The position numbers and the translations under genes were made by a program. A stretch of DNA of 64,000 bases, taken from NCBI GenBank assembly GCA_020725175.1, contig DYFM01000004.1:20015-84014 (forward strand), read 5' to 3'. The number at the start of each line of letters is the position of its first letter. Position 1 is the first letter of the stretch. Positions 20,782 through 62,813 of the stretch are shown one piece after another. The notes under the pieces were generated by a model. It was given only the letters and a program-made list of their open reading frames with translations. It was not told where the DNA came from and searched no databases. Source of the DNA: Candidatus Paceibacter sp. (GTDB lineage Bacteria; Patescibacteriota; Patescibacteriia; Magasanikbacterales; UBA922).

Positions 20782-21438
20782 TTACTTACGGCTCGGTTTA
20801 GTTTCCGGTATGTTTTCTTTTGGTGGTGTAGTTTTATTAATTTCATTTTTACCCCTTGGCTCTGTTAATTCATCCAAACGTTTTTCACAATATTTTTCTA
20901 AACTATTCATTTGTGCTTCAATGTGACTGATGACACTAAAAACAATCGATTCTGAGTATGTATTATTGCTACACACATCAATCATTTTTTTTAACCAAGT
21001 AGATACTTCCCGAAAATACGCGTACCACTGAGTTTCAATGGTTTCATCTTCTTCTCTACTTCCAAATTCATCCCCAGGCTCCGAGAGGTTCAAGGATGTG
21101 CGTATCTCCATTAGTTCTGTCAATATTTGTTGTTTTTTCTTGTTAATAGAAGTTACTCCATCCGGCAAAGGAGCAGGTTCGTAACGTGATAATCCTGAGT
21201 ATGCACTATTTACGGCTATATCCCAGTCCGCCTTTGTTAAGGTCTGATTTTGAATTGATGTATCCTTAAGAAGCGTAATTAATCCTGATATGATCTTAGT
21301 GTCTATCCATTCTGTTACATGGGTAGGTTCTTCGTGAAAAATAGTACTAGCATTTGGATAATGTTTATTCTCAAGTAAACTCATAAAAAGAGAATGCAGT
21401 CTATCTTCTAAATTGTTATGTCTTGAATCATTACTCAT
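20782..21438 (-). CDS. hypothetical protein (track ORF extends to 21579 across a repeat; likely start Met at 21438 'MSNDSRHNN')
   Basis: acidic alpha-helical 218-aa product; the N-terminal 47 track residues are translation of Family B repeat. Confidence 0.4.
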   Translation of the reverse strand: MSNDSRHNNLEDRLHSLFMSLLENKHYPNASTIFHEEPTHVTEWIDTKIISGLITLLKDTSIQNQTLTKADWDIAVNSAYSGLSRYEPAPLPDGVTSINKKKQQILTELMEIRTSLNLSEPGDEFGSREEDETIETQWYAYFREVSTWLKKMIDVCSNNTYSESIVFSVISHIEAQMNSLEKYCEKRLDELTEPRGKNEINKTTPPKENIPETKPSRK

Positions 21439-21477
21439 AATAAAGTAAAAAAATTTAATTAAATTTAAATGTGGTTT

Positions 21478-21700
21478 ATCTCTCGATTTGAATCCGCCCA
21501 CAGCCCCCACCTCCACCCCCACCCGAGGCGGGTAAACAAGGCGGGTAAACAAGGCTGACAAGCAAGGTGTGCAAAGCAAGGCGGACGAGGGTTTTATTCC
21601 CTCCCGATATTATCGGGAAAAACTACCTATAGCGATACCTCGTCAGCTTCCACCCTCCACCCTAGGCGGACAGGTAAGGCGGACACGTGCGGCGGGGACA
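21478..21700. repeat. Family B gene-upstream repeat (long variant)
   Basis: 'cccacccgaggcgggtaaacaaggcgggtaaacaagg ... ggcggacaggtaaggcggacacgtgcggcgggga'; shorter copies 21993-22082 and 32815-32868. Confidence 0.6.
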
Positions 21701-21992
21701 TTCATTATTATGAGTTTAATAAACTATTTTTACCAAGACATGTATGATAAAATGGATTAAGTTTTTTTTTGTTTCTGCCATTGTTCGCCTGTCTGATTAA
21801 GGCGTGGAGTTGGACAGACGTCGTAGAACAGGTGTAAAAAAACAATTGTTCTGTGTGATTGTGGGGGTGGAAGTACTTACCCAATATTGATTATTATAGC
21901 ATAAATGTTATCTTTTGTCAAAAATAAAAGCTGCCATGGTCGAGGGCAAGATGAATAAAGAACCTTGAATAATTTTGGAAACCAGTTTTGTT

Positions 21993-38439: not shown

Positions 38440-38658
38440 ATGAAAAAACTCTATCGATCAAAAAAAGAAAAAATCATTGCCGGAGTTTTGGGTGGTATTG
38501 CTGAGTATCTGAACACTGATCCCACGATTGTGCGGTTGGTGTTTGTGATTCTCTTGATAGCTACCGGACTATTTCCATTTGGGATCGCGTATCTTATTGC
38601 CGCGATTGTGATACCGTATCGCAATGAAAAAGATGAAGGGGTGGTATCGGAGCAGTAG
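38440..38658 (+). CDS. PspC-domain membrane protein
   Basis: 'MKKLYRSKKEKIIAGVLGGIAEYLNTDPTIVRLVFVIL' canonical PspC N-domain, one TM helix. Confidence 0.75.
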   Translation: MKKLYRSKKEKIIAGVLGGIAEYLNTDPTIVRLVFVILLIATGLFPFGIAYLIAAIVIPYRNEKDEGVVSEQ

Positions 38659-38790
38659 GGCATTGAAAGTATTGATTCCGCAGATTAAAATGGATTACTC
38701 GGAATGATTTGATTTGCATTGATTACACAGAATTAAAAGGATTACACTGATTTTTTGTTGAACAATTATTTGAGCTTTTTTTCTATCCAC

Positions 38791-38816
38791 AGCCGTCAAT
38801 TGACGGCTGTTTTTTA
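38791..38816 (+). terminator. rho-independent terminator (agccgtcaattgacggct + T6)
   Basis: 8-bp stem, downstream of PspC-domain gene. Confidence 0.65.
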
Positions 38817-38836
38817 TTGTGTTACGGTGGAAACAT

Positions 38837-38905
38837 ATGAAAAAGAGAATTCCCCAAACGAATGCATGGTGGTGGACATTGCAGAGCGGCAATGTCATGT
38901 TTTGA
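38837..38905 (+). CDS. putative Trp-rich leader peptide (22 aa, MKKRIPQTNAWWWTLQSGNVMF) of a trpS attenuator
   Basis: three consecutive TGG codons at 38867-38875; GGTGGA 6 nt upstream of ATG; immediately followed by alternative hairpins and an intrinsic terminator. Confidence 0.5.
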   Translation: MKKRIPQTNAWWWTLQSGNVMF

Positions 38906-38930
38906 TACCTTCATACGTTTTGAACTATTC

Positions 38931-38965
38931 AAACCTCTCGACATTGCCGAGAGGTTTTTGTTTTG
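38931..38965 (+). terminator. attenuator terminator (AAACCTCTCG-acattgc-CGAGAGGTTT + TTGTTTTG)
   Basis: 10-bp stem + U-tract; loop sequence GACATTGC(CG) duplicates segment 38875-38882 and is complementary to 38887-38896, giving 1:2 / 2:3 / 3:4 alternatives. Confidence 0.6.
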
Positions 38966-39039
38966 ATGTATGTTTCTCTTCATGAAATATTCACCAGCGC
39001 AAAACCTTCAACAACCGCGCTGGAAAAGGAGAACTTGCC

Positions 39040-39207
39040 ATGGCAATTCGGTGGATCCACAACGGTGGCTGGGATCCGCACCCGGAGCCCATTGAGGTTT
39101 CGGATGAGGAGGAGAAGAAGGTGAACGAGCAGCCGGCTGAGGACGCTCAGTCTGCTCCCACGTCGTCTCCCGACGACTGGGACGACTTCACCTGCTTCTT
39201 ATCCTAG
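39040..39207 (+). CDS. GC-rich (about 60% GC, GC3-biased) small acidic ORF, 55 aa (MAIRWIHNGGWDPHPEPIEVSDEEEKKVNEQPAEDAQSAPTSSPDDWDDFTCFLS)
   Basis: AGGAG Shine-Dalgarno 8 nt upstream of ATG; strong codon-third-position G/C bias unlike host genes; followed by 13-bp GC hairpin 39215-39245; below 60-aa cutoff of the ORF track. Confidence 0.45.
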   Translation: MAIRWIHNGGWDPHPEPIEVSDEEEKKVNEQPAEDAQSAPTSSPDDWDDFTCFLS

Positions 39208-39308
39208 TCATCTAGGCCGAGTGCTCAACATCTGAGCGCTCGGCCACCATCATTGCTTGTCATTATTGATAAAATACGCTATTCTACAGCTAACTAATCA
39301 AATTTTTT

Positions 39309-40310
39309 ATGATCAAACCAACCATTCTCTCTGGTATTCAACCAACCGGCAATCTCCATATTGGAAACTATTTGGGTGCCTTGAAGAACATTATTAATTT
39401 ACAAAATTCGGGGGAATACGACATGTATATTTTTATTCCCGATCTACATTCACTCACCGGAAGTCGTACGGCCAACGAAAGGCGAGAGATTATCGCAATT
39501 TTGGCAGTGGAATTTTTGGCAGCCGGACTTGATCCGGAAAAAGTTACTTTTTTTGCTCAGTCACATGTACCTGAGCACGCGGAACTGGGTTGGATATTCA
39601 ATTGTATTACTCCGATTGCCGAGTTGGAACGGATGACTCAATATAAAGACAAAGCGCAACAGCAAGAAAAAAATATCAATGCCGGATTGTTTACTTACCC
39701 GGCTTTGATGGCGGCCGATATTTTGCTTTATCATGCTACTCAAGTTCCGGTCGGAGAGGACCAAATTCAACATGTAGAACTAACTCGAGATATTGCGCGC
39801 TGGTTCAACAATCGTTATCCATCGGCAAATCACCCTGAAGGATATTTTGCCGAACCAAAAGTACTGCTTACTGATTTGCCAAAAGTAAAAAGTCTATTAG
39901 AGCCAACCAAAAAAATGAGTAAGAGTAAAGGTGAGGGTCATGTTATTGAGCTGGCAGATGAACCGGATGTCATTGAAAGAAAACTTAAAAAAGCGGTGAC
40001 TGCAAGTGAAGGCGGGATTGGTGCGCCGGGAGTAGAAAATTTACTTTTGCTTTTGAAGAATTTTGGTAATGCCGAGCTTTACCGGCAGTTTAGTGCTGCG
40101 GAAAAAGACGGTTCAATTCGTTACGGGGATCTCAAAATAGAAGTCGCTCATTCAATTTCGGAATATTTTGTTGATTTTAGAGAAAAGAGAAAAGAATTAT
40201 TGGCTCGGCCAAATGAGATAAAAAATATTTTGTCTACCGGAGCTGAAAAGGCCAGAATAGTGGCCAATAAAACTATGAACGATGTACGAAAGTTGGTTGG
40301 GATATCCTAA
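39309..40310 (+). CDS. trpS: tryptophan--tRNA ligase
   Basis: 'ILSGIQPTGNLHIGNYLGAL' (HIGH-class motif), 'KMSKS' present; 333 aa. Confidence 0.9.
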   Translation: MIKPTILSGIQPTGNLHIGNYLGALKNIINLQNSGEYDMYIFIPDLHSLTGSRTANERREIIAILAVEFLAAGLDPEKVTFFAQSHVPEHAELGWIFNCITPIAELERMTQYKDKAQQQEKNINAGLFTYPALMAADILLYHATQVPVGEDQIQHVELTRDIARWFNNRYPSANHPEGYFAEPKVLLTDLPKVKSLLEPTKKMSKSKGEGHVIELADEPDVIERKLKKAVTASEGGIGAPGVENLLLLLKNFGNAELYRQFSAAEKDGSIRYGDLKIEVAHSISEYFVDFREKRKELLARPNEIKNILSTGAEKARIVANKTMNDVRKLVGIS

Positions 40311-44742: not shown

Positions 44743-45009
44743 ATGACGATACATGATTTTATAAAACAACGCCCATATCTGATTTGGTGGGTGAAAAATT
44801 ATGATAGGTTGAGTGCCGAATCTATTGTTGAGGCTACTCTCAATTATGGTGATTGGGATGAAGATGTGATAACTTTATTCAAGATTATGGGCCTCAAAAA
44901 AGTGGCCAAGATTTTTCGAGAAAAATCCGAGCCGTCGAAAATGGGGAGGCAGAATTATGATGAGAAAACGAAGCTATTTTTTACTCGATATTTCAATAAG
45001 TATGCATAA
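44743..45009 (+). CDS. small protein overlapping AbiEii gene start (candidate cognate antitoxin)
   Basis: 88 aa; stop TAA overlaps toxin ATG in ATGCATAATGA (8-nt overlap), typical of coupled TA operons; no recognisable HTH. Confidence 0.4.
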   Translation: MTIHDFIKQRPYLIWWVKNYDRLSAESIVEATLNYGDWDEDVITLFKIMGLKKVAKIFREKSEPSKMGRQNYDEKTKLFFTRYFNKYA

Positions 45010-45616
45010 TGAGATTTTGTCCGAAGATCAGAAAAAATTACTGCCTTTGGTGAAAAAATTTTCCAAGCAGTTTTTTTTGGTTGGAGGAACAGCCATTGCG
45101 CTTCATATTGGGCATAGAGAGTCAATTGATTTTGATTTGTTTTCGTTTGATGAATTTGATAATAATAAGATACGAAGTGTTATTAAGCGATTTGGCAGGA
45201 ATATTGGTCAGGTGTATAAAGATGAAGATGGTCAATTTACTTTTTTCATCGGTACCGTGCAACATACTTTTTTTCACTACCCATTTAGTTTTGAGGTTAC
45301 AGAAATGCTCAATGACGTGATTCGAATGCCGGATTTGCTGACCTTGGCAGCGATGAAAGCCTATGCACTTGGGAGGCGAGCAAAGTGGAAGGATTATGTA
45401 GATTTGTATTTTATTATGCGCGATTATCATTCTCTTGATGAGATTGTAGTTCGAGGAAAAGAAATCTTTGCCGGGGAATTCAATGGGCGTATTTTTCGTG
45501 AGCAATTAGGGTATTTTGACGATATTGATTATACGCAAGAAGTTGTTTTTTCGCCGGGATACGAGGTTAGTGAAAAAAAGATCAAAAAAGAACTCATCGA
45601 ATTTAGTTTATCTTAA
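45002..45616 (+). CDS. nucleotidyltransferase of AbiEii/AbiGii (DUF1814) type IV toxin family
   Basis: 'FFLVGGTAIALHIGHRESIDFDLFS' NTase signature (GG[ST]A..L..G.R.S.D.D) and C-terminal 'DYVDLYFIM' motif. Confidence 0.7.
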   Translation: MHNEILSEDQKKLLPLVKKFSKQFFLVGGTAIALHIGHRESIDFDLFSFDEFDNNKIRSVIKRFGRNIGQVYKDEDGQFTFFIGTVQHTFFHYPFSFEVTEMLNDVIRMPDLLTLAAMKAYALGRRAKWKDYVDLYFIMRDYHSLDEIVVRGKEIFAGEFNGRIFREQLGYFDDIDYTQEVVFSPGYEVSEKKIKKELIEFSLS

Positions 45617-46401: not shown

Positions 46402-49400
46402 TTGGTTATCATGGGAAAAATAATCAAAAGACATTGGCACAAAACACTCCTTCTCGTCCTGCTGGTTTCAGTAGCAGGATTTTTTGGGTTGTTTGGATCA
46501 CGTTATGGTTTTAAGACCGATGTGGTAAAAGCAGATTCACGGACGATTACTTGTAATGGAACCAGTAGAACACTTACGGTTGGTGCATATACCGATGCGG
46601 CAGGAACGACTTTTGAATCAGGATCGGATCTTATTTTGGATCAGGGGAGTGGGGCTTGTACGTTTACGTTGAATGGGACTGTTTCCCTTGCTTCTTTGAA
46701 TGTGGGGAGTGGGGTGACGTTGACGCATAGTGATAATACTACAGCGCAAACATATACATTGGTGTTGAATGTTACTGGGGACGTCACTGTGTCAGGCTCT
46801 ATCGACGTGTCGGGAAAAGGATTTAGCCCTGGCTATGGAAGTGGTGCAGGAATGAATTATAGTGCCGGAAACATGAGTGGTGCTGCATACGGTGGATATG
46901 GTGGAAGCGGTGGGTGGTCATCAAGTTATACAAAAGCCGTTTCATATGGCAGTGCTTTGGCTCCAGCAGAAATCGGTTCTGGAGGTGGAAATGGATATGC
47001 AGCTACCACAGGTGGAGATGGAGGAGGGCATGTGAAGATTACTGCAACCAACCTGACTGTTTCTGGATCAATTTTAGCAAACGGAAATTCGGGTACTATT
47101 TCAGGAGGATATGGAGGCTCTGGTGGATCTGGCGGGAGTGTTTATTTGCTTGTAAGTAGTACAGTGAATTTAACTGGTGCTACCCTGACAGCAAACGGTG
47201 GGAATGGAGCAAATGGAACAGTCAATAATACGTCTGCGGATGGAGGTGCAGGTGGTGGAGGTCGTATTGCTATTGTGAACTACGCGTCATATTCTGCCCC
47301 CACTACGCTCAGTGTTTATGGTGGAACAGCTTATCTCAATGCTCAGGATGGTGGAGCCGGTTCAATATATATCAAAGAAAATGGGACAAATGGGACATTG
47401 ACATATGATAATAATAGTTCTGCCGATAGTATTGGTAGTCGAATTACCGATTCAGCAAACTATACGATCGATGAGTTGGTGTTAAAAAATGGTACTTCAC
47501 TTACTATTCCGTCCGGAGTTACCATCAACTCAAGCCAATCCACTTTTAATAATACTGGGACAAACACTTTAACTCTCGTAGGGATATTCAATCTTACAAA
47601 TACAGAATTTACTTTTCCATCCAACTTAACTTTTTCAGCAAGTGGTAATGCTTCAATCGGAACATCAATTACTTCTTCCACTATTGCAGGCACTGTTACA
47701 TTTACTTATGGGATGACACAGAATCTAAGTAGCCTATCTACTGTAAGGGTGGCATCTGGCGGCACACTTTTTCTTTCTTCATATACTACGTCAAATGCAT
47801 TGACAATAGATACGTTGACTGTAGAAGGTACTTTAACCCACACTGATAATACGACCGCACAAACTCATATAATAAATGTCGTGGCTTCGGACGTCACTGT
47901 CTCCGGTTCAATCAACGTCAACGCCAGAGGATTTGCCGGTGGTGCCACTGGTTCCCATGGGAGTGGAAACGTAAATGGCTATGGTATTGGATATTCAAAC
48001 GGAAATAGTGGTGGGGCTGCATACGGAGGTTATGGCGGAGCCGGCGGATATAACGGAGGGGCAAATGGTAAAGCGACTGCCTATGGGGATGCCCTTGCTC
48101 CGACAGATCTTGGTTCAGGTGGTGGGGGTGGATACAATTCAGCTGGTGGAGATGGTGGAGGAACTATTAAAATTACCGCAACAAACTTGACGGTTACCGG
48201 TTCAATTGTAGCCAATGGCGAAACAGGAAAAACAACAGGTACATACGGTGGAGGTGGGGGATCTGGTGGGAGTATATATTTGGTAGTTAGTAGCACGGTA
48301 GATTTCACTGGGGCAACAATTACTGCTAATGGTGGTAATGGAGGGGATGGAAGTGGTAATGATACATCTGCTAACGCAGGCGCCGGAGGGGGTGGTCGTA
48401 TCGCGATCGTCAACTATAGCTCGTATACGGCACCAACTACCCTGACAGCCTATGGTGGTATTGGACCGACCAATGCCTCTGATGGTGGGGCTGGTTCAAT
48501 TTATATTAAACAAACAGGTACCAACGGCATATTGACATACGATAATGCTGTTTCTGTTGATGGTACCGGGTCAATTATCACCGCTTCTGCCAACTATACC
48601 ATCGATGAACTGGTCTTAAAAAATGGTGCTGCATTGACTCTGCCTTCAGGCGCAACAATCACCTCAAATCAAACAACGTTCAATAATATTGGGACGCCAA
48701 ATCCTACTTTTGTCATTAGTGGAACCTTTAACCCGGGCAACACAAGTTTTATTTTTCCCTCCTCATTTACTACTACTTTTGGCAGCACAGGGGTTTTGAG
48801 TACTGTAACGTCTTCTACACTGCAGGGAACAGCAGGTTGGACATACGGGTTTACGCATAGTTTGTCAAATCTTACTATAGACAGTGGATCGACAGTGACA
48901 CTTTCTTCTTTTACGACATCAAATGCACTCTCCATAGCTACAATTATAATTAATGGGACCCTTACTCATACCGATAATACGACCGCACAAACGCATGTTA
49001 TCAATTTATCGGCAACAGATCTAACTATTGGTGCTTCGGGGTCTATTAGTGGTAATGCTAAAGGATATACCGGCTCATCTGCTGGTACTGTCGGAAACGG
49101 AACCGGTGGAGGTACCTATGCCGGTGGAGCTGGGGGAGCTTCTCATGGGGGTGTTGGTGGGGCAGGAACAAATAGCTCGCAAAAAGCAGCATATGGCAGT
49201 GCATCATTGCCTGTTACCATAGGTTCTGGAGGAGGAGGGGGTTCGGGATGGGGTGGTGGTGATGGTGGGGGGTATGTAAAGGTCCTTGTCTCTAATCTTA
49301 CATTGGCGGGGTCAATTAGTGTCAATGGCGCGGGTGGGACATCCAATGGGTCTTATTCTGGTGGTGGAGGATCTGGAGGCGGAGTTTATTTGAATATTTC

Positions 49401-52400
49401 CGGATCATTTAGTGGTGCAGGTTCTATCTCGGCGGATGGTGGTGATGGTGGGGGTGGTAGTGCTTCCTATGATGGTGGAGGAGGCGGTGGGGGCCGTATT
49501 GCCATTGTTCCTCTTGAAGGATCTCTATCATACACAGGTACAATTACCGTAGATGCAGGTGTTGGTCCGGACGCAGCACAAGATGGTGGTACAGGTACAA
49601 TTTATATTTTACCGAACTCTTCTTTTACTCTTGATGCTTCATATACATCGGCTGCTTGGCCAGGTACAATTTCAGGTACTTCAACCGACCATGATGTGAG
49701 TGTTGCGCAAGTCGATCTCAAGATTCAACGTTTTTCTGATAGTTATTACTGGAACGGTTCAGACTGGACAGCGAGTGAAACCTGGGTGACCTCAACCGGT
49801 ACGAGTACCTGGAGTTATAGTTTTTCGGGTGGTAATATGACTGATGGTACCTATACCGTCACTTCAAGAGCAACGGATAGTGATGGTGAGGTGGAAGCAG
49901 TATTGACTAGTGATAGCTTTACATTTTCTTCCATAGCCAGTGCTCCTCCTGTTGCCGGCGTTCCTGCTTACGCTTCTCAAGCGAGTGATGGTTCCGGTTA
50001 TGTCACAATTACAGCCGAAGTCTCAGACCCAAATTTTGATTCTCTTAAACTTCGAGTTGATTATTCCGATAATGGAGGTATCAATTGGTATGATCCGGAT
50101 TTGGTGAGTGTTAGCGCGTCGGTAGGTACGAATCCGGATCTAGATGATGCTAATGTGTATCAAATTGGAACAGTTAGTAATATCTCTACGGCCTCGAGTA
50201 ATACACTGTCAATTGTGTGGAATACCAAGTCAGCGTCAAATGGGAATGGGGCAATTGCCGGTCGCCAGACTGATATAATGGTTCGTGTTCTTCCAAATGA
50301 TATTATCGGTGAAGGAGATGGAACCTATGCGACTTCTACAGCATTTACGGTAGACAATTCGGCCCCGAGTGGTCCGGGAACTGCCTCTGCCTCATTTTCC
50401 GGCTTAAATGCTTCTATTTTTTGGACTGCAGTGACTGAAGATGAGTTTAGTCGATATGAAATATGGTATGGAACAAGCCAGAGTGATGTAGAAGGGAGGA
50501 CCGGCGCGGCACAACCATACACGACAAGTTCTGATCCTAATCTTTCGAGTACTTCAACCATAAACGTGACTATTTCAAGCTTGTCTCTTGGGCAAATTTA
50601 CTATTTTCAAGTTTTTGCTTTTGATGCTTATGGAAATTATAGTACGTCTACTGTAGTTTCAGGGACGGTGCCTGGCACCCCGCCTACGGTTTCCACACCA
50701 ACCCTTACACAACAATTGTCTGATGGGACGGGTTATATAACATTTACTACTCAAGTTCATGATACTGATACCGAAGATCTTTCGCTTCGAGTTGAATTTT
50801 CCGAAGATGGGAGCGCCTGGCGGAAGGCATATATTGTTACTTCATCGGTCAATTACGGTACCTCTACTATTTTTAATGTAAATACAAATCAAATCAGTGT
50901 TGATCGTTTGAGGGCCAATAATGGCTCTTTGTATTCCGATCTGGTCGCGCATTATGATTTTGATACAGATACCTCGACACTTGCTGATATTACTGGAAAT
51001 GGGTATAACGGTTTTTGGAGTACCGGTGCTGCTTCGCTTACCATCGGTAGATATGACAGTGCCGGGGATTTTGGTGCTCAATATGTACAAGTTAATACTC
51101 CAATATTAAATGACCCGCCTTTTTCTGTTTGTTTGTGGGCCAAACCAGACTCTCTTTCGCCAAGTTCTAATGATTATATTATTGCAAATGGCGCCCATAC
51201 TTCAGCAAAGGGTTTTAGTTTGTATTACAATACAAGTGGATGGAATTGGGTAGTCAAAAATATTTCATACAGCAAAACTCAGGTATTGAGCGCTTCTTCA
51301 GGGTGGAGTTTTTTATGTGGAACTTGGGATGGCACAGATACTGCTGGTGCAGTAAAATTTTATATAAATGGATCAGAAAATTCTACTACTGCAGTTGGTG
51401 GAGGAAGTAGTGTGAGTCAAGATTTAAGAATTGGAGAAGCAAGTGATGCTACAGGATATAGATTTGAAGGCTTAATTGATGAAATTTCAATATTTAATCG
51501 TATCCTTTCGTCTGACGATGTGCTCGAGTTAATGAATGCTCCGTATCCTTCAGGTTCAACCACTACACTCACCATTGTTTGGGATCCCACCTCTGCCTCC
51601 AATGAAGGTGGTGCTCTCACCGGTGAACAAAGTGACATTCAAGTTCGAGTGCGAGCGAACGACAGCTTGCAAAATGGGGAGTACGTAACTTCATCGGAAT
51701 TTAGCGTGGATGTGCAGGCGCCGACCGGCTTAGCAAATCTTGCCGTTACCGCTACTAGTACCAATGGCACGGTGGATCTCTCTTGGAGTGTAACAAGTGA
51801 TACCAATTTCAACCGTTATGAAATTTGGTACGGCTCAAGCAGTTCTGATGTGTCTTCTCGCTCCGGATCAGCCACTCGTTGGACGACCAGTTCTGATAGC
51901 AATCTCTCTAGCGGGGCTACTACCAGTTCTACTCTTACCGGTCTCCCTGGCGGTACCTTGTACTATAGTGTGTTTGCTATTGATGATTATGGAAATACGG
52001 CCACCACGACACAAGTGTCAGCGACTATTGTGCGAGATTTTGTGTCTACTCAAACTGGCAACTGGAATGTAGGTACCACTTGGGGCGGAGCATGTTCTTC
52101 TTCGTGTACTGCCGGAACCGATTTCCCAACCTCTACTGACACCGTGGTAGTTACCAGTACTCATGTGGTTACTATTCCGGCCTCAACCAGTGCCAGCTTC
52201 AATAGTCTTAATATCCGTGGTACTGCCACGGTAAAAATGGTGGGAAACATTGGTACCGGTACGGATATTACCATCGAAAACGGGGCGACATTACAACAAG
52301 AAAATACCTCTCTGCAAACAATTTCCGGAACACTTACCGTGGAGAATGGGGGAACCTTTACACATACTGCCCAAACCGATACATCTTCAAGTGGTGGCTG

Positions 52401-55400
52401 GACTACTCTTTCAAACATTCATTTTTCTGCGGATACAATTCTCATTAATTCTGGAGGGGCGATTACCGCCTCGCAAAAAGGATTTGCCGGAAGTCCTGCG
52501 GCTACAAACGCTTCCGATCTTGCAGCGCAAGGGTATGGTCCGGCCGGAGGATATAAAGCATCCGGGGGAGCGTCTCATGCTGGAACAGGAGGAGCTTCTT
52601 CTTGGAGCGGGGGCGCACAAAATACTACTTATTGTACAAAAACCCTTCCTGCTACGATGGGTTCCGGAGGGTCAGCAGCCCAAGGCACCAGCCCAAATGG
52701 TGATGGTGGAGATGGAGGTGGCTTGATTCAATTATATGCAAATCAAATAACAGTAACTGGTTCAATTTTATCTTTGGGAGGTGATGGAACCGCGGGGTCA
52801 GCTTCCGGTTCAGGGGGTGGTTCTGGTGGAGGAGTATTTGTTTCTACAACAGTCATCAGTGGTTCAGGTACTATTTCTGTCAATGGAGGAAATGGCTACA
52901 GTTATGGAAACTTTAATGGTGGTGGTGGAGGGGCTGGGTGTGTATCCATTATCGGTACAGAAGGGTCACTCTCCGGTTTTAGTGGATCAATCAATAAAAC
53001 CGGGGGTGTGGGGCCTGGTGCCGCTGGTGATGGTGGGGCAGGTACCCTCTACATCCGTCCCGACTCATCAATCACCAGTCTCACCACGAGTTCATACACA
53101 AACTTTTCTTGGTCGGGCACTATCTCCGGTACGTCAACTGATCATGATGATTCTGTTTCAAATGTTCACCTGAGAATTCAGCGAGGCAGTGACTCTCAAT
53201 ACTGGGACGGCAGTACCTGGACGGCGAGTGAAACTTGGGTTACCAGTACCGGAAACACATCGTGGAGTTATGATATCGCGGCCGGAAATTTTACTGATGG
53301 AGTGTCCTACACCATATCATCACGCGCGACCGATTCTGAGTCGGAAGTGGAAAGTGTATATGATACCGCCACTTTTAGTTTCTCAACCGAAGCCAACACA
53401 GCTCCGACCGCTACGGCTCTGAGTGTTTCACAAATTGCTTCTTCCACTGCCAGAGGAATAGTGTATGCCACTACCACGGTTTCGGATTCAAACTTGCAAG
53501 ACACCAGTCTTTACATTGATTACTCGCTTGACAATGGAGTGAATTGGACTTCTTCTACCATTGATGTCTTCAGTATTTCCGGACAAACAAATGGTTACAG
53601 TACCTCGACCGGTCAAATAAGTGGGATCGATTCTTCGGCTGGAGAAAAAACCGTTACCTTTATCTGGTATGCTTACACTGATGCCGGAGCGATTGACATC
53701 TCTTCCGCTCAGCTCAGAGTTACCCCAAACGATGGTACCGTAAACGGCAGTATCCAAACCTCGGCTTCCTTCAATCTCGACACCAATCCACCATCCGGTC
53801 TCGGCTCTTTCACTGTTTCAAGTTACACCTCTGAGCAAGTTCACCTCACTTGGGCGTCTACCACTGATACCAACTTTGATCATTACGAAATCTGGTATGG
53901 TACCAACCAAAATGATGTTCAAAATAGACAAAATACCGCCATCGAATGGGATACGACTGATGATGCTGATCTTGCTATCGCCGGTACCGCCTCGACTACC
54001 ATCACCGGGCTTACTCCTGACACGTACTATTTCAAAATCTTTGCAATTGATAGCTACTACAACGAATCTACTGTCGCCGACATCAATACCACCAACTCAA
54101 ACACGGCACCGACTTCAACCATTTCTGTCCAACCATCCCAAACCACCAACGGCACACAAACAATTTCGTTCACGGCCACCATTCAAGATACCGACGCCAC
54201 GCAAACGAGCATGATCGTGGAACATTCCACTGACGGATCTAGTTGGACTTCTTCTACTATTCTTTCTGTTACCCCGGACTTTGGTTCTGTCACCACATCC
54301 ATCGGACAGATCACCTTAATTGATACCGATCTAGCAGACAACAACACCGTCTCGCTTGCCGTGACTCTGTCTGCTAGTGTCAATTTTCCTAATACCAGCG
54401 ATGATACTGTCTACATCCGCCTTACTCCTCAAGATTCATACGCCAACGGATCAAGTCTCACTAGTTCCGCATTCATTGTCGACACTATCAACCCTACGAC
54501 ACCGGGTTCATTTACGGTTTCAACTTCAACGACATCAACAATTACATTTACATACGGCAGTGCTTCAACTGAGGATCATTTTAGCCAATACAAAGTATAT
54601 TACACCCAAGCAAGTAGTGGGGTTACCATCAACGATACCGAGATAAGCAGTTCTACGGTATCGGCGCTTGGCTCGCGAACTTTCAACGGCGAAACTACCT
54701 TTACTCTTGCGAGTCTTTCTCCAAACCTTCCTTATACCATTACCATCAAGGCTTTTGATAGCTACGGAAATGTTTCCAGTCTAGCAACCGAAACAACCGC
54801 CTATACCAACCCAACCATTCCAATCAGTCTGGCGGTATCTTCTCTCAACGAAACCACGCTGCAGCTTTCTTGGAATGCAAATTCCAATCCATCCGGATCA
54901 ATCTATTACCTTGCCTACAGTGACAATACCTTTATTGCCACCACTACCGCGACCAGTACCAATGTCACCATTGAAACTCCGGGACAAGAATATACCTTTA
55001 AAGTACGAACACAATACGCCAATTCCACAACGACGTATTCTGATTATTCTGCTACTGCAAGCGGGTCGACTACTATCAATCCTCCAAACGCTCCAACCGG
55101 AGTAACACCAGCAAGTGTATCAACATCCACCCTTACGCTTTCATGGACAGATACCAATTCCTACGAAGATAATTATTTTGTATACCTTGATACGACGGAA
55201 GGGGAGAGTGATACGCTGGTTACCACTACAGCATCAAACGTTACTTCAACTGCTATCTCGGGACTAACTCCAAATACCACTTACTACTTCACTGTTGTCG
55301 CTTCCAACACGGCCGGTACTGCAACATCTACTCAATCTAGCACAACAACAATTTCACTGTCACCTGATGCTCCGACAGATCTTACGGTAACAAACATTCA

Positions 55401-58400
55401 ATCAACCTCACTTACATTGAGTTGGACGGATAACACCAGTGGTACCAACGCGGAAGATAATTTTATTGTGAAGTATGGGACCAGTACCGGATCATATTCC
55501 ACCACTGCCACGACGACTCAAGCCAATACCACCTCAAGCACAGTTACCGGTCTTACTCCCAACACCGAGTATTTCTTTGTTGTCCTGGCAACGAACGAAG
55601 CTGGTACCGCTACCTCAACCGAATTTTCAACCACCACACTTGATTCCGCTCCTACCGCTCCAACCAATCTTACTGTTTCAAATAAATCAACTTCAACACT
55701 TACCCTCTCATGGGATGACAATGCCAACAATGAAACATCGCAGACCGTTCTTTACGATACGGACAACAATTCATTCAACAATAGTTCATCTCAATCTGCC
55801 AACACTACTTCAACATCAATTACCGGTCTTACTCCTAATACTCAATACTATTTCAAAGTGAGAAGTACCAACGCCGGTGGTTCAAACGATTCAACAGTCA
55901 CTACTACCTACACCACTGCCAACGCACCGACTATTTTGTCTATTACTGCTGTTTCCTACGATCGTATTTCTCTGAGCTGGAACGCAAACACGAACCCAAG
56001 TGGTACGGTATATGAAGTGACTCGAGTTAATGGTGAAGATATACTACTCGCCACTACAACCGAAACCAGCTACACGGTTACCGGCCTTGACGTCGAAACC
56101 ACCTACACCTTCAAAGTTCGGGCGATCAATGCGGATGGCTCTGGGTACTCCAATTATTCTGACCCCGAGGCAGAGGCAACAACGAGTATCGATCCTCCTA
56201 CCGCCGCCTCAGGACTTAGCTTTAGTTCTGTTGCGAGTAGTTCCCTGGTTATTTCCTGGACAGACAATTCCACTGGTTCAGCCGAAGAAACCTCTTTTAG
56301 TGTCAAGTATGGTACTGCTTCTGGAACCTATTCAAACACTGCTACCACCACGGCTGCCAATGTTACCTCAAGTACTGTCACCGGTCTATCTCCAAGTACG
56401 ACGTACTACTTCGTGGTCATCGCAAGCAACAGTTCCGGTTCAACCACTTCTACCCAGGCAAGTACTTCAACCGTTATTTACGCGCCAGCCGCACCAAGTG
56501 GGGTAACGATTCTTTCTACCACGGCGGACACCCTCAGTCTTTCGTGGACAGACAATAGTAGTGGTGATACCCAAGAAGCGGACTTTTTGATTGAATATGG
56601 TACTGATGGTGTGAGTTTCCCAAGTAGTACAACCGTCGCCGCCAACGAAACAACGGCGCTCCTGACGAGTCTTACTCCAAACTCGACCTATTATGTTCGA
56701 GTAACTGCGAGAAACAGTGCCGGATCGGCAACCAGTGATAGTGTTTCATCAGCCACCAGTATTGGACTTCCGCCAAAACCAAGTAGTCTCACCTTTAGCG
56801 CTGTCTCTACCTCTTCTCTGACGATCACATGGACCGACAATTCTTCCGGAGATTATCAAGAAGCATCTTTCACGGTTGCCTACACTACCGACGGCTCTAC
56901 CTATACCACCGCCACTACCACTGCTCCAGACACCACGAGCGCGAGTGTGGATAGTCTCACTCCAAACACCACCTATGTTTTCAAAGTTACCGCGACCAAT
57001 GCCAGTGGTTCGGGTATTTCTGATACCGAAACAACTACCACACTTCCTTTGGCTCCGGCAGCAGCGAGTGGGCTGAGTGTGGCCAGTACCACTCCAAGTT
57101 CAGTTACACTCACCTGGACTGACAATACGGGAAGCACTGATAATGAAGAATACTTTACTATTGAATATGGAACTGACGGAGTCTCCTTCAACAATTCTCT
57201 CATTGCTATTAAAGACACCACTTCGCGAACGGTGAGTGGGCTTTCTCCAAGTACTACCTACTACTTTAGAATTGCCGCTAATAACAGTGCCGGTTCAAGC
57301 ACCTCAGACGTGGTATCAGCTACTACCAATGTGGGGGCTCCAATGGTACCGGGAAGTTTGACAGCGGTTTCAGTCACTACCTCAACCGTTTCACTGACTT
57401 GGGTAGACAACAGTAGTGGAGAAAATGAAGAAGATAATTTTATTGTGAAGTACGGAACAGACGGTGTAAACTATGGCACTACTGCCACCACCACCGGTCA
57501 ACACGTGCAGGCCGCGACCGTTACAGGTTTAACACCAGGTCTCCGCTATTACTTCATCGTCGAAGCACGTAATACCACTGATGCGGCGGTGTCCCAAGAT
57601 GTTATCGTTACCATGTTGCCAAATGCTCCTGGTGCGCCAACTCTCGAAAGCGCGAGTGCTACGTCGATTCAATTGAGTTTTGCTGCCAATGGGAACAATG
57701 CTGAGGTGGATTATGCTATTTATAATGAAACAACTGGTAAGTACATCAATACAGTTAGCAATGAACCAAGTCTCTCGGCTGGATGGCAAACAGCCGCACA
57801 GTGGGGAAGTCCGATCACTGTTTCCGGTCTAGCGCCAAACACGAGTCATGTGTTCAAAGTTCGCGCACGGAATGCCAACGGAGACTTTTCGGAATATTCA
57901 GCAACGTCTAGTCTCTATACGCTTGCGGCGACCCCTACCCGCCTGAGTGCCAGTGTGGCGTCTGCTACGAGCATTACGGTTTCTTGGAATGCCAATAGTA
58001 ATCCTAGTGGCACGGTGTATGAAATCTATGACTACACCAATACTACCGTTCTCACAACCACCACGGAAACCAGTTATTCTCTTACCGGACTCGGGATCAA
58101 TACCGGGTATCGGTTTCAAGTCCGGGCCGAACATGCCGGAAGCCCGGGGACTTATTCCGATTATACTTCTCCACCAAGCACTCTGCTATACACCCTTGCC
58201 ACCGCGCCAAACCCGGCTGTCGTGAGTAGTGTCTCCACTTCATCGTTTACTATCCTCTTTAGTGATAGTGATACCAATCCAAGTCACACCAAGTACGCGA
58301 TTCGAATTGGTGATAGTCAATATCTTCAAGCTGATGGATCATTGAGTGCTAGCACGCTTTACCAAACCGAGACGGTGTGGAATTCTCCAAGTTACGTGGG

Positions 58401-60650: not shown

Positions 60651-60765
60651 ATAAAAGCAAAACAAAACAGACACACATGAAAAAGATACTCAAAGGATAA
60701 ACCCCACGTCGAAATTCATGATAAAATTCATCTCAAAACCGTCGTTTCGCAGGCGGTTTTGTATT

Positions 60766-60794
60766 TTGACAACACCCAATTTCAAAGGTATACT
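60766..60794 (+). promoter_or_regulatory. consensus sigma70-type promoter TTGACA-17 nt-TATACT
   Basis: -35 TTGACA 60766-60771, 17-nt spacer, -10 TATACT 60789-60794; precedes PAS-sigma gene. Confidence 0.6.
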
Positions 60795-60842
60795 GAAACT
60801 TCACAGACTATAGTTTTTCCAGCCTTTCAAGCATTTTCTCAC

Positions 60843-61913
60843 ATGTTCAACAATTTCTCTGGCACCATCATCATTACCGACCCAAACGCGGTGATTCTCT
60901 ATGCCAATCCGTCGGTAGAAGAACGGACCGGTTTTTCGGTTGCGCAAGCAGTAGGAAAACGACCGGGAGAATTGTGGGGTGGACACATGCTGCGAGAGTT
61001 TTATGATCGGATGTGGCAGACGATACGTGAGGAAAAACGCCCGTTTGTTGGTGAAGTAAAAAATAAGCGCACAGACGGTACGTTTCGGCGTATGGGGCTC
61101 CATATCGCACCGATTATCAATCGTCGAAATGAGGCAGAATACTATATCGCTATTCATCCGGCAGTGACAACTGACGTGGAAGAACGACAATTTCAACAGG
61201 AGTTTGCTGAGGTATTTGCACCATGGCATGTTTCTACTTCTTCGGAAACAATTGCTTGGTTGGCGCGTTGGACCAAAGGCGAAGCCAAATTGACGCTTGA
61301 CGAAGGAGGTGTACTCCACAAAACACATCTGGTTGATATGGTCTCCTTTTTTCGTACGGAACTCATCAACCCGATTGCCGAAAAGTTTCAAGAGCGAAAG
61401 GCTGATGCAGAATTGGTACGATTGGCACAAGAAAAACCAAGCAAGTTCCATTTGTTATATGAAAAGTATCAGGCATCAGTTGAACAGTATTTTTTGCGCC
61501 GGTTAGGAGGGGATGTTATGTTGGCGGAAGAGTGTACACAAGAAACGTTTATTCGTGCGTTTCGATTTTTACCGCAGTATCATATTACCAATGCTTCGTA
61601 CCAAACTTACCTTATGCGTATTGCTCACAATTTACTAGTAAGTCATTATCGCAAACAAGCTCCACTGTCTCTTGAAGAGCAAGAAGGAACATTGGTCAGC
61701 GAAGATAATTATGAGGGTATTTTTGACCAAGAAGAATTGCGACAATTATTAGAAACTGTTTCGGATGTTGAACGAGATATCTTAACGATGAAATACATTG
61801 ATGAATTATCTATTCGTGACATTGCCGTAACCCTCGGAAAAACAGAAAATGCCGTGAAACTTATGTTGTCGAGAACAAGGAAAAAATTGAGAAATAGGGA
61901 AATAACGAAATAG
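60843..61913 (+). CDS. PAS-domain fused to sigma-70/ECF-type sigma factor (sigma2 + sigma4 regions)
   Basis: N-terminal PAS fold 'IIITDPNAVILYANPSVEERTGFSVAQAVGKRPGELWGG'; sigma region 2 'YFLRRLGGDVMLAEECTQETFIRAFRFL'; sigma region 4 HTH 'ILTMKYIDELSIRDIAVTLGKTENAVKLMLSRTRKKL'; start set at Met 60843 downstream of promoter (track start 60759 overlaps promoter). Confidence 0.75.
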   Translation: MFNNFSGTIIITDPNAVILYANPSVEERTGFSVAQAVGKRPGELWGGHMLREFYDRMWQTIREEKRPFVGEVKNKRTDGTFRRMGLHIAPIINRRNEAEYYIAIHPAVTTDVEERQFQQEFAEVFAPWHVSTSSETIAWLARWTKGEAKLTLDEGGVLHKTHLVDMVSFFRTELINPIAEKFQERKADAELVRLAQEKPSKFHLLYEKYQASVEQYFLRRLGGDVMLAEECTQETFIRAFRFLPQYHITNASYQTYLMRIAHNLLVSHYRKQAPLSLEEQEGTLVSEDNYEGIFDQEELRQLLETVSDVERDILTMKYIDELSIRDIAVTLGKTENAVKLMLSRTRKKLRNREITK

Positions 61914-62215
61914 GGAAATAACGAAATGTGTTTCCCTCTATCAGGGGGACGCAAGGGGGTCGTTCAGAGGTAGAGTGTTTGGAACTTGGATAGTGCTTTT
62001 ATGTTAGCCCTTTGCTAGCTAACTAAGGAATAACAGACGACCCAAGGGGAGTGTGTTGGAATGTACAATACACACTAAATAATAACTTTAAACACAAAGA
62101 GAGAAAATAAATTGTCAAAAACAGTAGATCTGAACAGCTATGGTTGATTGAAATAGGTGAAAAATGTGATTTCTTAATCAGTAAAATAGCAAACGCCAGA
62201 TTTTCCCAAAAACAA

Positions 62216-62256
62216 AAAACCGTATCTGCAAGAACCAGTACGGTTTTTTTATTTCC
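62216..62256. terminator. bidirectional rho-independent terminator (A6-CCGTATCTG..CAGTACGG-T7)
   Basis: 8-bp stem with one bulge flanked by A and T tracts. Confidence 0.65.
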
Positions 62257-62317
62257 ACGTTTCGCCCTTCGGTAGGCTCAGGGCTCATCAGTCCCGATCA
62301 TCAATCGGAAGACGTGG
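62255..62317 (-). ncRNA. type III hammerhead self-cleaving ribozyme
   Basis: minus-strand RNA 5'-CCACGUC^UUCCGAUUGAUGAUCGGGA-CUGAUGA-GCCCUGAGCCUACCGAAGGGC-GAAA-CGUGG-3': open helix III (6 bp), closed helix I (7 bp, loop UGAUG), core CUGAUGA, closed helix II (5 bp, 11-nt loop), GAAA, GUC cleavage triplet; all invariant core positions present. Confidence 0.8.
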
Positions 62318-62350
62318 TCCCCGGCGCGAGCGCTGGGGAGCACGCCGGGG

Positions 62351-62485
62351 CTAACGCATCAGGTGTCCGATGCATGAGCCCACCCCTCCCGCCACCGCCA
62401 GAGCAAACAGCTGCTCTGGCGTGTGGCCCAGGAACAGGCCCATGGCGGCGCAGGTCAGCGCCGCCACGATGTAGGACTCCGTCAT
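62351..62485 (-). CDS. GC-rich (about 66% GC) 44-aa hydrophobic two-helix peptide (MTESYIVAALTCAAMGLFLGHTPEQLFALAVAGGVGSCIGHLMR)
   Basis: strong GC3 bias (ACG GAG TCC TAC ATC GTG GCG GCG CTG ACC TGC GCC GCC ATG GGC CTG...) in a 38% GC genome; small-residue Gly/Ala zipper-like helices; followed by 8-bp GC hairpin, hammerhead and terminator; frame differs from track ORF 62301..62501. Confidence 0.45.
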   Translation of the reverse strand: MTESYIVAALTCAAMGLFLGHTPEQLFALAVAGGVGSCIGHLMR

Positions 62486-62813
62486 AAAAAAACCCCATCA
62501 AACACCTGCACCACGCAGATGTGAGGGGTCCTCCTACAAAAAAACTACCAGAGAGAGAGAGTTAAAAGTCAATAATAAATCGCTCTACAACCACCTTGTT
62601 CCTTGCCACTTACCTCTGACACCTTTTCCCTATTTCTGCGTTTATTAATATAGAGTACCCGCCCTGGGCGGAAAAAGTAAAACAACAAAACAATAAAACA
62701 ATAAAGCAATTTAGCAATGTGACAATATAACAATCAAACATTTTATACATTAGTTCAATTCAATGAGCCTTCGAAGCCTTGTAAGCTTCGGGGACCTCGT
62801 AAGCCTTTCAACT

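Follow-up and report, generated by a model that had tools for sequence, protein, structure and literature searches.

Several described systems sense an amino acid through the translation of a short leader. In Bacillus subtilis, the charging of tRNA-Trp is sensed by rtpLP of the anti-TRAP operon, a very short leader peptide encoded with three Trp codons in a row; rtpLP precedes a protein of ~53 residues and acts on rtpA translation, together with a T-box. In Streptomyces, the tryptophanyl-tRNA synthetase (TrpRS) subject to attenuation is an auxiliary second enzyme that is antibiotic-resistant. For this genus, attenuators of the classical kind have been predicted ahead of trpS and leuS, and a pheST attenuator has been described in gamma-proteobacteria (PMC1262725); Streptomyces was also the precedent that an initial annotation of the DNA described here had invoked. 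In mycobacteria, leaderless polycysteine small open reading frames (sORFs) act as amino-acid-responsive attenuators of downstream genes (bioRxiv 10.1101/834739). Here, we describe a candidate attenuator upstream of trpS, at 38837-38965 of a 64,000-nt stretch from Candidatus Paceibacter sp. (contig DYFM01000004.1, positions 20,015 to 84,014; hereafter the window, within which all coordinates are given), a member of the Candidate Phyla Radiation (CPR), or Patescibacteria. These bacteria have small genomes with few recognizable regulators and, to our knowledge, there are no standard genetic systems for them, and for these reasons their gene regulation is poorly known. A literature search found no paper combining CPR or Patescibacteria with attenuation.

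The gene that appears to be regulated, trpS (39309-40310, plus strand), encodes a TrpRS of 333 residues (Pfam tRNA-synt_1b, E = 4.8e-67) with relatives that bear the annotation tryptophan--tRNA ligase. Among the scanned open reading frames (ORFs) of the window, Pfam detected no further aminoacyl-tRNA synthetase and no further gene related to Trp. On the same strand and 5' of trpS lies a leader ORF of 22 codons (MKKRIPQTNAWWWTLQSGNVMF), running from the ATG at 38837 to the TGA at 38903-38905, in which three tandem Trp codons (TGG TGG TGG, 38867-38875) occupy codons 11-13 and would be the regulatory codons. The initial annotation had proposed a Trp-codon leader of this length upstream of trpS, and the sequence carries it at exactly the positions given there. 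Across both strands of the whole window, 868 ATG-started sORFs of 10-40 codons were counted, and three consecutive tryptophans (WWW) occur in one of them, the leader ORF.

The RNA that follows the start codon of this leader offers three alternative pairings, all on the plus strand. Segment 1 (GACATTGC, 38875-38882) begins at the last base of the third Trp codon, and segment 2 (GCAATGTC, 38889-38896) lies inside the leader ORF; the two form a 1:2 hairpin (38875-38896) of 8 bp with a 6-nt loop and an energy of -10.2 kcal/mol, which would serve as the anti-antiterminator. This hairpin is followed by AUGUUUUGAU and was flagged as terminator-like by the terminator consensus scan, two features that fit a possible role as a pause site. 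Starting 26 nt after the leader stop codon, a predicted 3:4 intrinsic terminator (38931-38965) has a 10-bp stem and a 7-nt loop (AAACCTCTCG / CGAGAGGTTT, 38931-38957), with TTGTTTTG after the stem and a U-rich tail reading UUGUUUUG as far as 38965; its energy is -13.7 to -14.0 kcal/mol, and the same scan lists it as terminator-like. Finally, CGGCAATGTC (38887-38896) is the perfect complement of GACATTGCCG (38940-38949), giving a 10-bp 2:3 antiterminator. As the 2:3 helix takes up the loop of the terminator along with three positions of its stem, and crosses what remains of that stem, the 2:3 and 3:4 pairings exclude one another in the manner of a pseudoknot, and their coexistence would, from pairing topology, need a pseudoknot that is sterically impossible. 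All three structures had been put forward in the initial annotation and were recovered in place. In order to gauge how unusual the long complement is, 111 strict terminator-like hairpins from the window and ~1.1 Mb of related loci were compared; a 10-nt perfect complement within 100 nt upstream was present for the attenuator alone (mode, 5 nt). Separately, units of the GTTTTGA type recur after the 1:2 hairpin (38899-38916), in the spacer (38917-38934) and after the terminator (38960-38971), and segment 1 with its flank (GACATTGCAGAGCGG, 38875-38889) reappears as GACATTGCCGAGAGG (38940-38954), recurrences that suggest an origin of the attenuator by local duplication.

Constrained folding, in which a ribosome was assumed to cover ~-15 to +12 nt around the A-site codon and only the RNA downstream of it was folded, produced a switch between these structures that depends on the position of the ribosome. 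With no ribosome on the leader, the 1:2 hairpin has a probability of 0.99 and the 3:4 terminator of ~1, and that of the 2:3 antiterminator is ~1e-5. When a ribosome is placed at Trp codon 2 or 3, where it masks segment 1, the minimum-energy fold of the RNA to 38957 is 2:3 at -21.2 kcal/mol, with a probability of 0.91, and the best folds containing the terminator reach -19.2 and -18.2 kcal/mol. In a transcript ending at 38949, for which the 3' arm of the terminator is not yet made, 2:3 is the minimum-energy fold for a stall at every one of the Trp codons (-20.1 kcal/mol). A ribosome at the stop codon hides segment 2 and leaves the terminator as the only option, at -14.0 kcal/mol. Overall, 2:3 states range from -19.9 to -21.2 kcal/mol, compared to -14 to -19 kcal/mol for terminator states. 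The constrained folds therefore switch in the way that the initial annotation had envisaged, with a stalled ribosome freeing segment 2 and a ribosome at the UGA masking it, and the folding check that it had recommended came out in favor of the antiterminator once Trp codon 2 or 3 was occupied.

The closest relative of this locus is a 1,883-bp Logan contig (L166), detected in a search of 5.8 billion proteins through its TrpS (P0005), which is 76% identical to that of the window. The 277 nt upstream of the L166 trpS contain the same palindromic upstream terminator at the same spacing to the ATG and a 20-codon leader ORF (MKQTFRQSNTWWWTLQIGNV, then a stop codon) that retains three Trp codons. Segments 1 and 2 are identical, so all eight pairs of the 1:2 hairpin are kept, and a homologous terminator (AAACCTCTTGGCATTGCCAGGAG) is followed by T7. 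The 2:3 pairs are likewise kept at 10/10, one of them through a compensatory change (C-G to U-A, 38887:38949) and one as a wobble, and the 3:4 terminator shows a compensatory change of its own at 38939:38949 (C-G to U-A). Positions 38887 (segment 2), 38949 (segment 3/4) and 38939 (5' arm of the terminator) thus read C/G/C in the window and U/A/U in L166, a concerted triple change by which the antiterminator pair and the terminator pair are both preserved. At 38941, A is replaced by G in L166, which keeps a wobble pair in 2:3 and gains a G-C pair in the terminator. Constrained folding of L166 yielded the same ribosome-dependent switch as in the window.

Conservation between the two loci is distributed in blocks. 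Identity is 91% for the upstream terminator and promoter (from T1 to the -10, see below), 93% for the block holding WWW and the 1:2 hairpin, 78% for the terminator and 50% for the spacer, with 73% for the trpS coding sequence, a profile that fits a regulatory RNA. Across leader codons 1-10, nucleotide identity falls to 64% and the changes are mostly non-synonymous, from which it follows that the leader peptide itself is not conserved; the part of the peptide that is conserved (WWWTLQ-GNV) coincides exactly with RNA segments 1 and 2. In L166, the U-tract of the terminator ends ~55 nt before the trpS ATG, and the element can for this reason be identified as a trpS leader. The search for the leader in related genomes that the initial annotation had called for has thus yielded a relative with a WWW leader and all three pairings, directly upstream of trpS.

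The leader is preceded on the plus strand by an upstream intrinsic terminator (T1, 38789-38816), a 22-nt perfect palindrome (ACAGCCGTCAATTGACGGCTGT) followed by TTTTTT, which probably ends the transcript of a PspC-domain gene (stop codon at 38658). A putative leader promoter (38800-38828, plus strand) overlaps it, its -35 element TTGACG (38800-38805) falling within the 3' arm of T1; the spacer is 17 nt long and the -10 element is of the extended type, TGtTACGGT (38820-38828), with only 8 nt between it and the leader ATG. The pattern TTGACR-N15-TGnTACRGT-N8-ATG is common to the trpS leaders of the window, L166 and two further contigs (L086 and L170), and this 40-nt pattern from promoter to ATG is absent elsewhere in the window and ~1.2 Mb of fetched loci on both strands. 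As the 8 nt between the -10 and the ATG are constant in length and variable in sequence across the four genomes, a leaderless or near-leaderless sORF is suggested, and this mini-gene is probably leaderless or nearly so. A GGAG, GAGG or AGGA motif 4-20 nt before the ATG was found at 1 of the 35 longest ORFs of the window, with trpS among those that have none, which implies that translation initiation in this organism is largely independent of Shine-Dalgarno sites. The GGTGG that precedes the leader ATG is not kept in L166. When the upstream regions of 111 genes were surveyed for -10-like hexamers, the single peak, at 6 nt, was weak, and for that reason the leaderless start is put forward as no more than probable.

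Another promoter candidate, TTGAAA-17-TAAAAT (38663-38691), was dismissed, as the scan that detected it performed no better than shuffled sequence (3 found, 2.7 expected) and its position is upstream of T1. The interval from the PspC gene to T1 also contains a 33-nt direct repeat with GATTAC motifs, whose two copies (38671-38703 and 38718-38750) are 79% identical. The second copy weakly resembles the trpS-proximal region of L086 (23/27 nt; p ~0.005 before correction for 13 comparisons), and the repeat may represent the remnant of a promoter or a site for protein binding.

L086 and L170, both Magasanikbacteria, extend the family beyond the WWW type. Their TrpS proteins are 69% and 70% identical to that of the window, respectively, and each has a 20-codon sORF upstream of trpS (MIKQNKPQKHYLWMRNHLCW and MNKQPAQRMHYLWMRRHFSW, each ended by a stop codon), followed by a terminator. 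These leaders have their length, promoter geometry and a Trp at aligned codon 13 in common, and codon 13 is also Trp in the window and L166; the peptide sequence differs. Their predicted antiterminator is of another design, a 14-15-bp helix that joins the sORF end, last UGG and stop codon included, to the interior of the terminator, and it is predicted to be disrupted by a ribosome at the stop codon and to remain intact when the ribosome stalls at codon 13. Both contigs also carry, between the leader terminator and trpS, a conserved 57-codon ORF (MNP.SKTIE...FELVVVVVKNVGEIVYIALKFVEKYVF; 2705-2878 in L086 and 1166-1339 in L170) with no Pfam family. A small ORF thus occupies this interval in three of the four leader-bearing genomes, though the ORFs are unrelated; the only downstream component common to all four is trpS.

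Beyond these four, many relatives keep the gene order of RNase J, an optional PspC gene and trpS and leave very little space ahead of trpS (22 nt in L004 and 33 nt in L006); a Trp leader was found in none of them. Within the same TrpS clade, L174 and L175 have just 41-51 nt before trpS, too little to hold a leader, and the 229-nt gap of L001 also lacks one. TrpS-anchored scans of genome and metagenome contigs placed the window in Candidatus Magasanikbacteria and returned best matches that were ~70% identical or less and no WWW leader in those relatives; the TGGTGGTGG matches seen in them were set aside, being out of frame and inside the RNase J gene. A search with the N-terminal 100 residues of TrpS, aimed at fragments at contig ends, found nothing closer than 69%. 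In five contigs of the same strain (L081-L085), the intergenic region is identical and hence uninformative.

Other arrangements were observed upstream of trpS in this group. In L001 (~2770-2840) and, just upstream of trpS, in L092 and L095, a hairpin (GGCCGRCTTGCCCCG...CGGGG) stands at the RNase J stop codon; the last codons (VVIEV and the stop) are repeated behind it, an arrangement suggestive of a small inserted element that duplicated its target. As read from sequence alone, L088 and L089 have an apparent trpB gene end directly upstream of trpS, and in L167/L168 a Trp_repressor-family gene (PF01371, 447-716) lies 2.3 kb upstream of it; these neighbors are alternative Trp-linked contexts for trpS in Magasanikbacteria.

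Between the attenuator and trpS, the window differs from L166. The initial annotation had named trpS as the next housekeeping gene downstream, which holds for its position (39309), and had omitted the 344-nt gap that separates it from the terminator, together with the 279-nt insertion and the promoter-like site contained there. In the alignment, the plus-strand stretch 38980-39258 is absent from L166 and is flanked by a short CTT repeat, and we read it as an insertion, the alternative being a deletion in L166. With 56% GC against 43% for the window and a maximum of 61% in 200-nt windows, it is the second most GC-rich island, and its plus strand is predicted to be unusually structured (fold z-score -6.8). 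No similar DNA was found in the window, related loci, phages or plasmids, and no Rfam family matched it. A T-box-like reading of this GC-rich segment, suggested by GGUGG motifs, was dropped as it had no covariance-model support.

The insertion holds an orphan 55-codon ORF with an acidic product (ORF55, 39040-39207, plus strand). Its AAGGAG, 7 nt upstream, is a strong site of a kind that this genome almost never uses. GC at codon positions 1/2/3 is 0.60/0.44/0.76, compared to 0.53/0.35/0.35 for trpS, figures that are coding-like and of a foreign-like composition. ORF55 matched only itself among 5.8 billion proteins, nothing in viral contigs and no Pfam family; two further HMMER matches from the exhaustive search were to proteins of over 1,600 residues and were judged unconvincing. 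Following the ORF55 stop codon by 7 nt is a 13-bp GC-rich hairpin (39215-39245, plus strand, -27.3 kcal/mol) that was not listed by the terminator scan and, lacking a U-tract, is not a canonical intrinsic terminator; read-through into trpS is accordingly to be expected. We read the segment as an acquired small-gene cassette that read-through transcripts would have to traverse.

Closer to trpS, a conserved region (39257-39308, plus strand) holds a promoter-like site made up of TTGTCA (39257-39262), a 17-nt spacer and TATTCT (39280-39285), at a distance of 24 nt from the gene; conservation with L166 takes in the site and the next 25 nt. L166 has TTGTCT-17-TATTCT in the same place, and 39259-39308 is 76% identical between the two overall, with the last 30 nt nearly identical. 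The role of this conserved site may be that of a basal promoter for trpS or of a translation-initiation region; in the former case, control would not rest with the attenuator alone, which would add an inducible component.

From the observed sequence features, energetics, footprint geometry and conservation with covariation, we consider it likely that charged tRNA-Trp is sensed here by a transcription attenuator of the classical, ribosome-mediated leader-peptide type, which would govern how much transcription continues towards trpS. Transcription would probably begin just before the leader ATG, from the promoter whose -35 lies in the 3' arm of T1. With plentiful Trp-tRNA, the ribosome would reach the UGA at 38903 and cover segment 2, the 3:4 terminator and its U-tract would form, and transcription would stop. 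If the leader were not translated, segment 2 would be held in the 1:2 hairpin and the terminator would form as well. When Trp-tRNA is scarce, the ribosome would stall on the three UGG codons (38867-38875) and cover segment 1, and the freed segment 2 would pair with 38940-38949 while the terminator still lacks its 3' arm, allowing RNA polymerase to read on. In L166, this read-through would lead straight into trpS, and in the window it would cross the 279-nt GC-rich segment, with ORF55 and its hairpin, before reaching trpS, which may have a basal promoter of its own as well. The transcription start, actual termination or read-through, and the coupling of transcription to translation in this organism are what we infer from these data. 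The proposal of the initial annotation that trpS is controlled by a Trp-codon attenuator is supported by both the folding and the L166 comparison.

Several observations weigh against this interpretation. The terminator, the promoter and the coupling are all predictions. Only one close relative was available, and the covariation comes from two sequences, for which the shuffle control has no power and was uninformative, so that the covariation is supportive without being statistically strong. In the stalled state, the advantage of 2:3 is only 2-3 kcal/mol, and for a stall at the first Trp codon the two states are close, the equilibrium tipping slightly towards the terminator (-22.4 kcal/mol, against -21.7 kcal/mol for 2:3). 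The antiterminator overlaps just three stem positions and the loop of the terminator, which means that exclusion is topological and does not sequester a whole arm. The distance from the terminator to trpS in the window, with a foreign ORF and a strong hairpin in between, and the promoter-like site downstream of the attenuator, which could drive trpS independently, may both loosen the connection to the proposed target. Finally, the attenuator is dispensable and patchily distributed among Magasanikbacteria.

The distance to trpS raises the question of whether, in this lineage, a genuine attenuator has been uncoupled from trpS by the insertion and now mainly gates ORF55 or persists as a relic, with a proximal promoter driving trpS separately. 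Conservation of the trpS-proximal site in L166 speaks for this, as do the place of ORF55 as the first ORF after the terminator, its strong AAGGAG and coding-like codon-position GC, and the 13-bp hairpin behind it. Yet that hairpin has no U-tract, the elements of the attenuator are all intact and match those of L166, where the element abuts trpS, and trpS is the sole downstream component that the four genomes with a leader have in common. No relative of the orphan ORF55 was detected, and it would make little sense for a protein of 55 residues induced by Trp starvation to contain 3 Trp. We therefore regard such uncoupling as unlikely, while the insertion and the possible proximal promoter may weaken the link between attenuator and trpS in the lineage of the window.

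The same comparisons bear on what the 22-codon ORF itself is for. That it encodes a functional Trp-rich micropeptide with its own terminator, the hairpins being incidental, is very unlikely: it is an ATG-started ORF with a terminator shortly after its stop and a peptide portion conserved in L166, but that portion is precisely what RNA segments 1 and 2 encode, the first 10 codons diverge mostly non-synonymously, the concerted changes that keep the RNA pairing include positions outside the ORF, and the L086 and L170 leaders lack any shared peptide sequence despite the same length, geometry and codon-13 Trp. Least credible of all is a chance ORF beside two ordinary terminators, or a small RNA or riboswitch that works independently of translation. 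TGGTGGTGG does occur nine times in the window, counting both strands, and the fold z-score of 38830-38970 is just -1.7; against this stand the unique WWW sORF, the unique 10-nt complement and a conservation with covariation that is always upstream of trpS. As for a riboswitch or small RNA, the only Rfam matches in the whole window at gathering thresholds were two tRNAs, and at E <= 10 the region 38600-39400 gave chance-level, terminator-driven matches with no Trp_leader (RF00513) and no T-box (RF00230); in the relatives, no Trp_leader was found in L166, L170 or L086 and no T-box at E <= 1.

Elsewhere in the window, a number of features were recorded that lie apart from this locus. The most GC-rich island (62184-62590, maximum 68.5% GC) contains, on the minus strand at 62351-62485, a 44-codon hydrophobic ORF (MTESYIVAALTCAAMGLFLGHTPEQLFALAVAGGVGSCIGHLMR) with hairpins on both flanks, possibly encoding a small membrane peptide or forming a toxin-like cassette whose composition is foreign. 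A GC-rich intergenic island at 21467-21718, upstream of a minus-strand ORF (20782-21438), has repeated units of the (A)CAAGG(C/T)G type and C-rich/G-rich runs, and had no Rfam match at the gathering threshold. There are also a gene for an AbiEii-family toxin (44957-45616), a fusion of a PAS domain to an ECF-type sigma factor (60759-61913) and an ORF of 4,669 codons (46402-60411).

We lean towards regarding the four leaders as the first recognized family of ribosome-mediated, probably leaderless, amino-acid-sensing attenuators in the CPR. If this is correct, these reduced-genome, Shine-Dalgarno-poor bacteria would couple transcription to translation closely enough for attenuation, would monitor tRNA charging through the speed of translation and would tune TrpRS to the charging of tRNA-Trp, and attenuator leaders could begin at the very 5' end of an mRNA. 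The family would also be evolving fast, with a WWW type and a single-Trp type of other antiterminator design, and would be gained, lost or interrupted by insertion between close lineages. At 130 nt, the element is compact enough to be tested in heterologous or cell-free systems and can serve as a search motif for metagenome annotation.

In its architecture, the locus resembles trpL of E. coli (Rfam Trp_leader, RF00513), which likewise has a short leader ORF, tandem Trp codons overlapping segment 1, alternative 1:2, 2:3 and 3:4 hairpins, termination as the default and read-through upon a stall at the Trp codons. The two differ in their target, which is trpS here and the Trp biosynthesis genes in E. 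coli, and in the number of Trp codons (three here, two in trpL), and there is no sequence or covariance-model similarity. In addition, segment 2 lies inside the ORF here, the antiterminator engages the loop of the terminator plus three positions of its stem, the host belongs to the CPR, and the leader has no Shine-Dalgarno site and a probable leaderless start. The T-box found upstream of trpS in Firmicutes (RF00230) also raises TrpRS in response to uncharged tRNA-Trp through a choice between terminator and antiterminator, but it binds the tRNA directly and needs no translation, and no T-box matched here at E <= 10. With the rtpLP leader of the anti-TRAP operon, the locus shares three consecutive Trp codons in a short leader and a small protein downstream, which here is ORF55; unlike anti-TRAP, to which it has no similarity, ORF55 has a single Cys and no Pfam family. 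The mycobacterial sORFs also start at or near the 5' end of the transcript, a start that is inferred here from promoter spacing, and also contain consecutive codons for one amino acid, which is Cys in mycobacteria and Trp here, with different genes downstream (10.1101/834739). Closest in target are the Streptomyces trpS (trpRS1) and leuS attenuators and pheST of E. coli, in which an aminoacyl-tRNA synthetase gene is attenuated by a leader peptide with cognate codons. The Streptomyces system belongs to a different phylum and is unrelated in sequence, and its attenuated gene is the second TrpRS, whereas the trpS described here is the only one seen within the window. As the mechanism is a textbook one with a Streptomyces trpS precedent, the advance lies in taxonomic reach and in detail, and not in principle; the noteworthy details are a host from the CPR, a start that is probably leaderless and the targeting of the terminator loop by the antiterminator.

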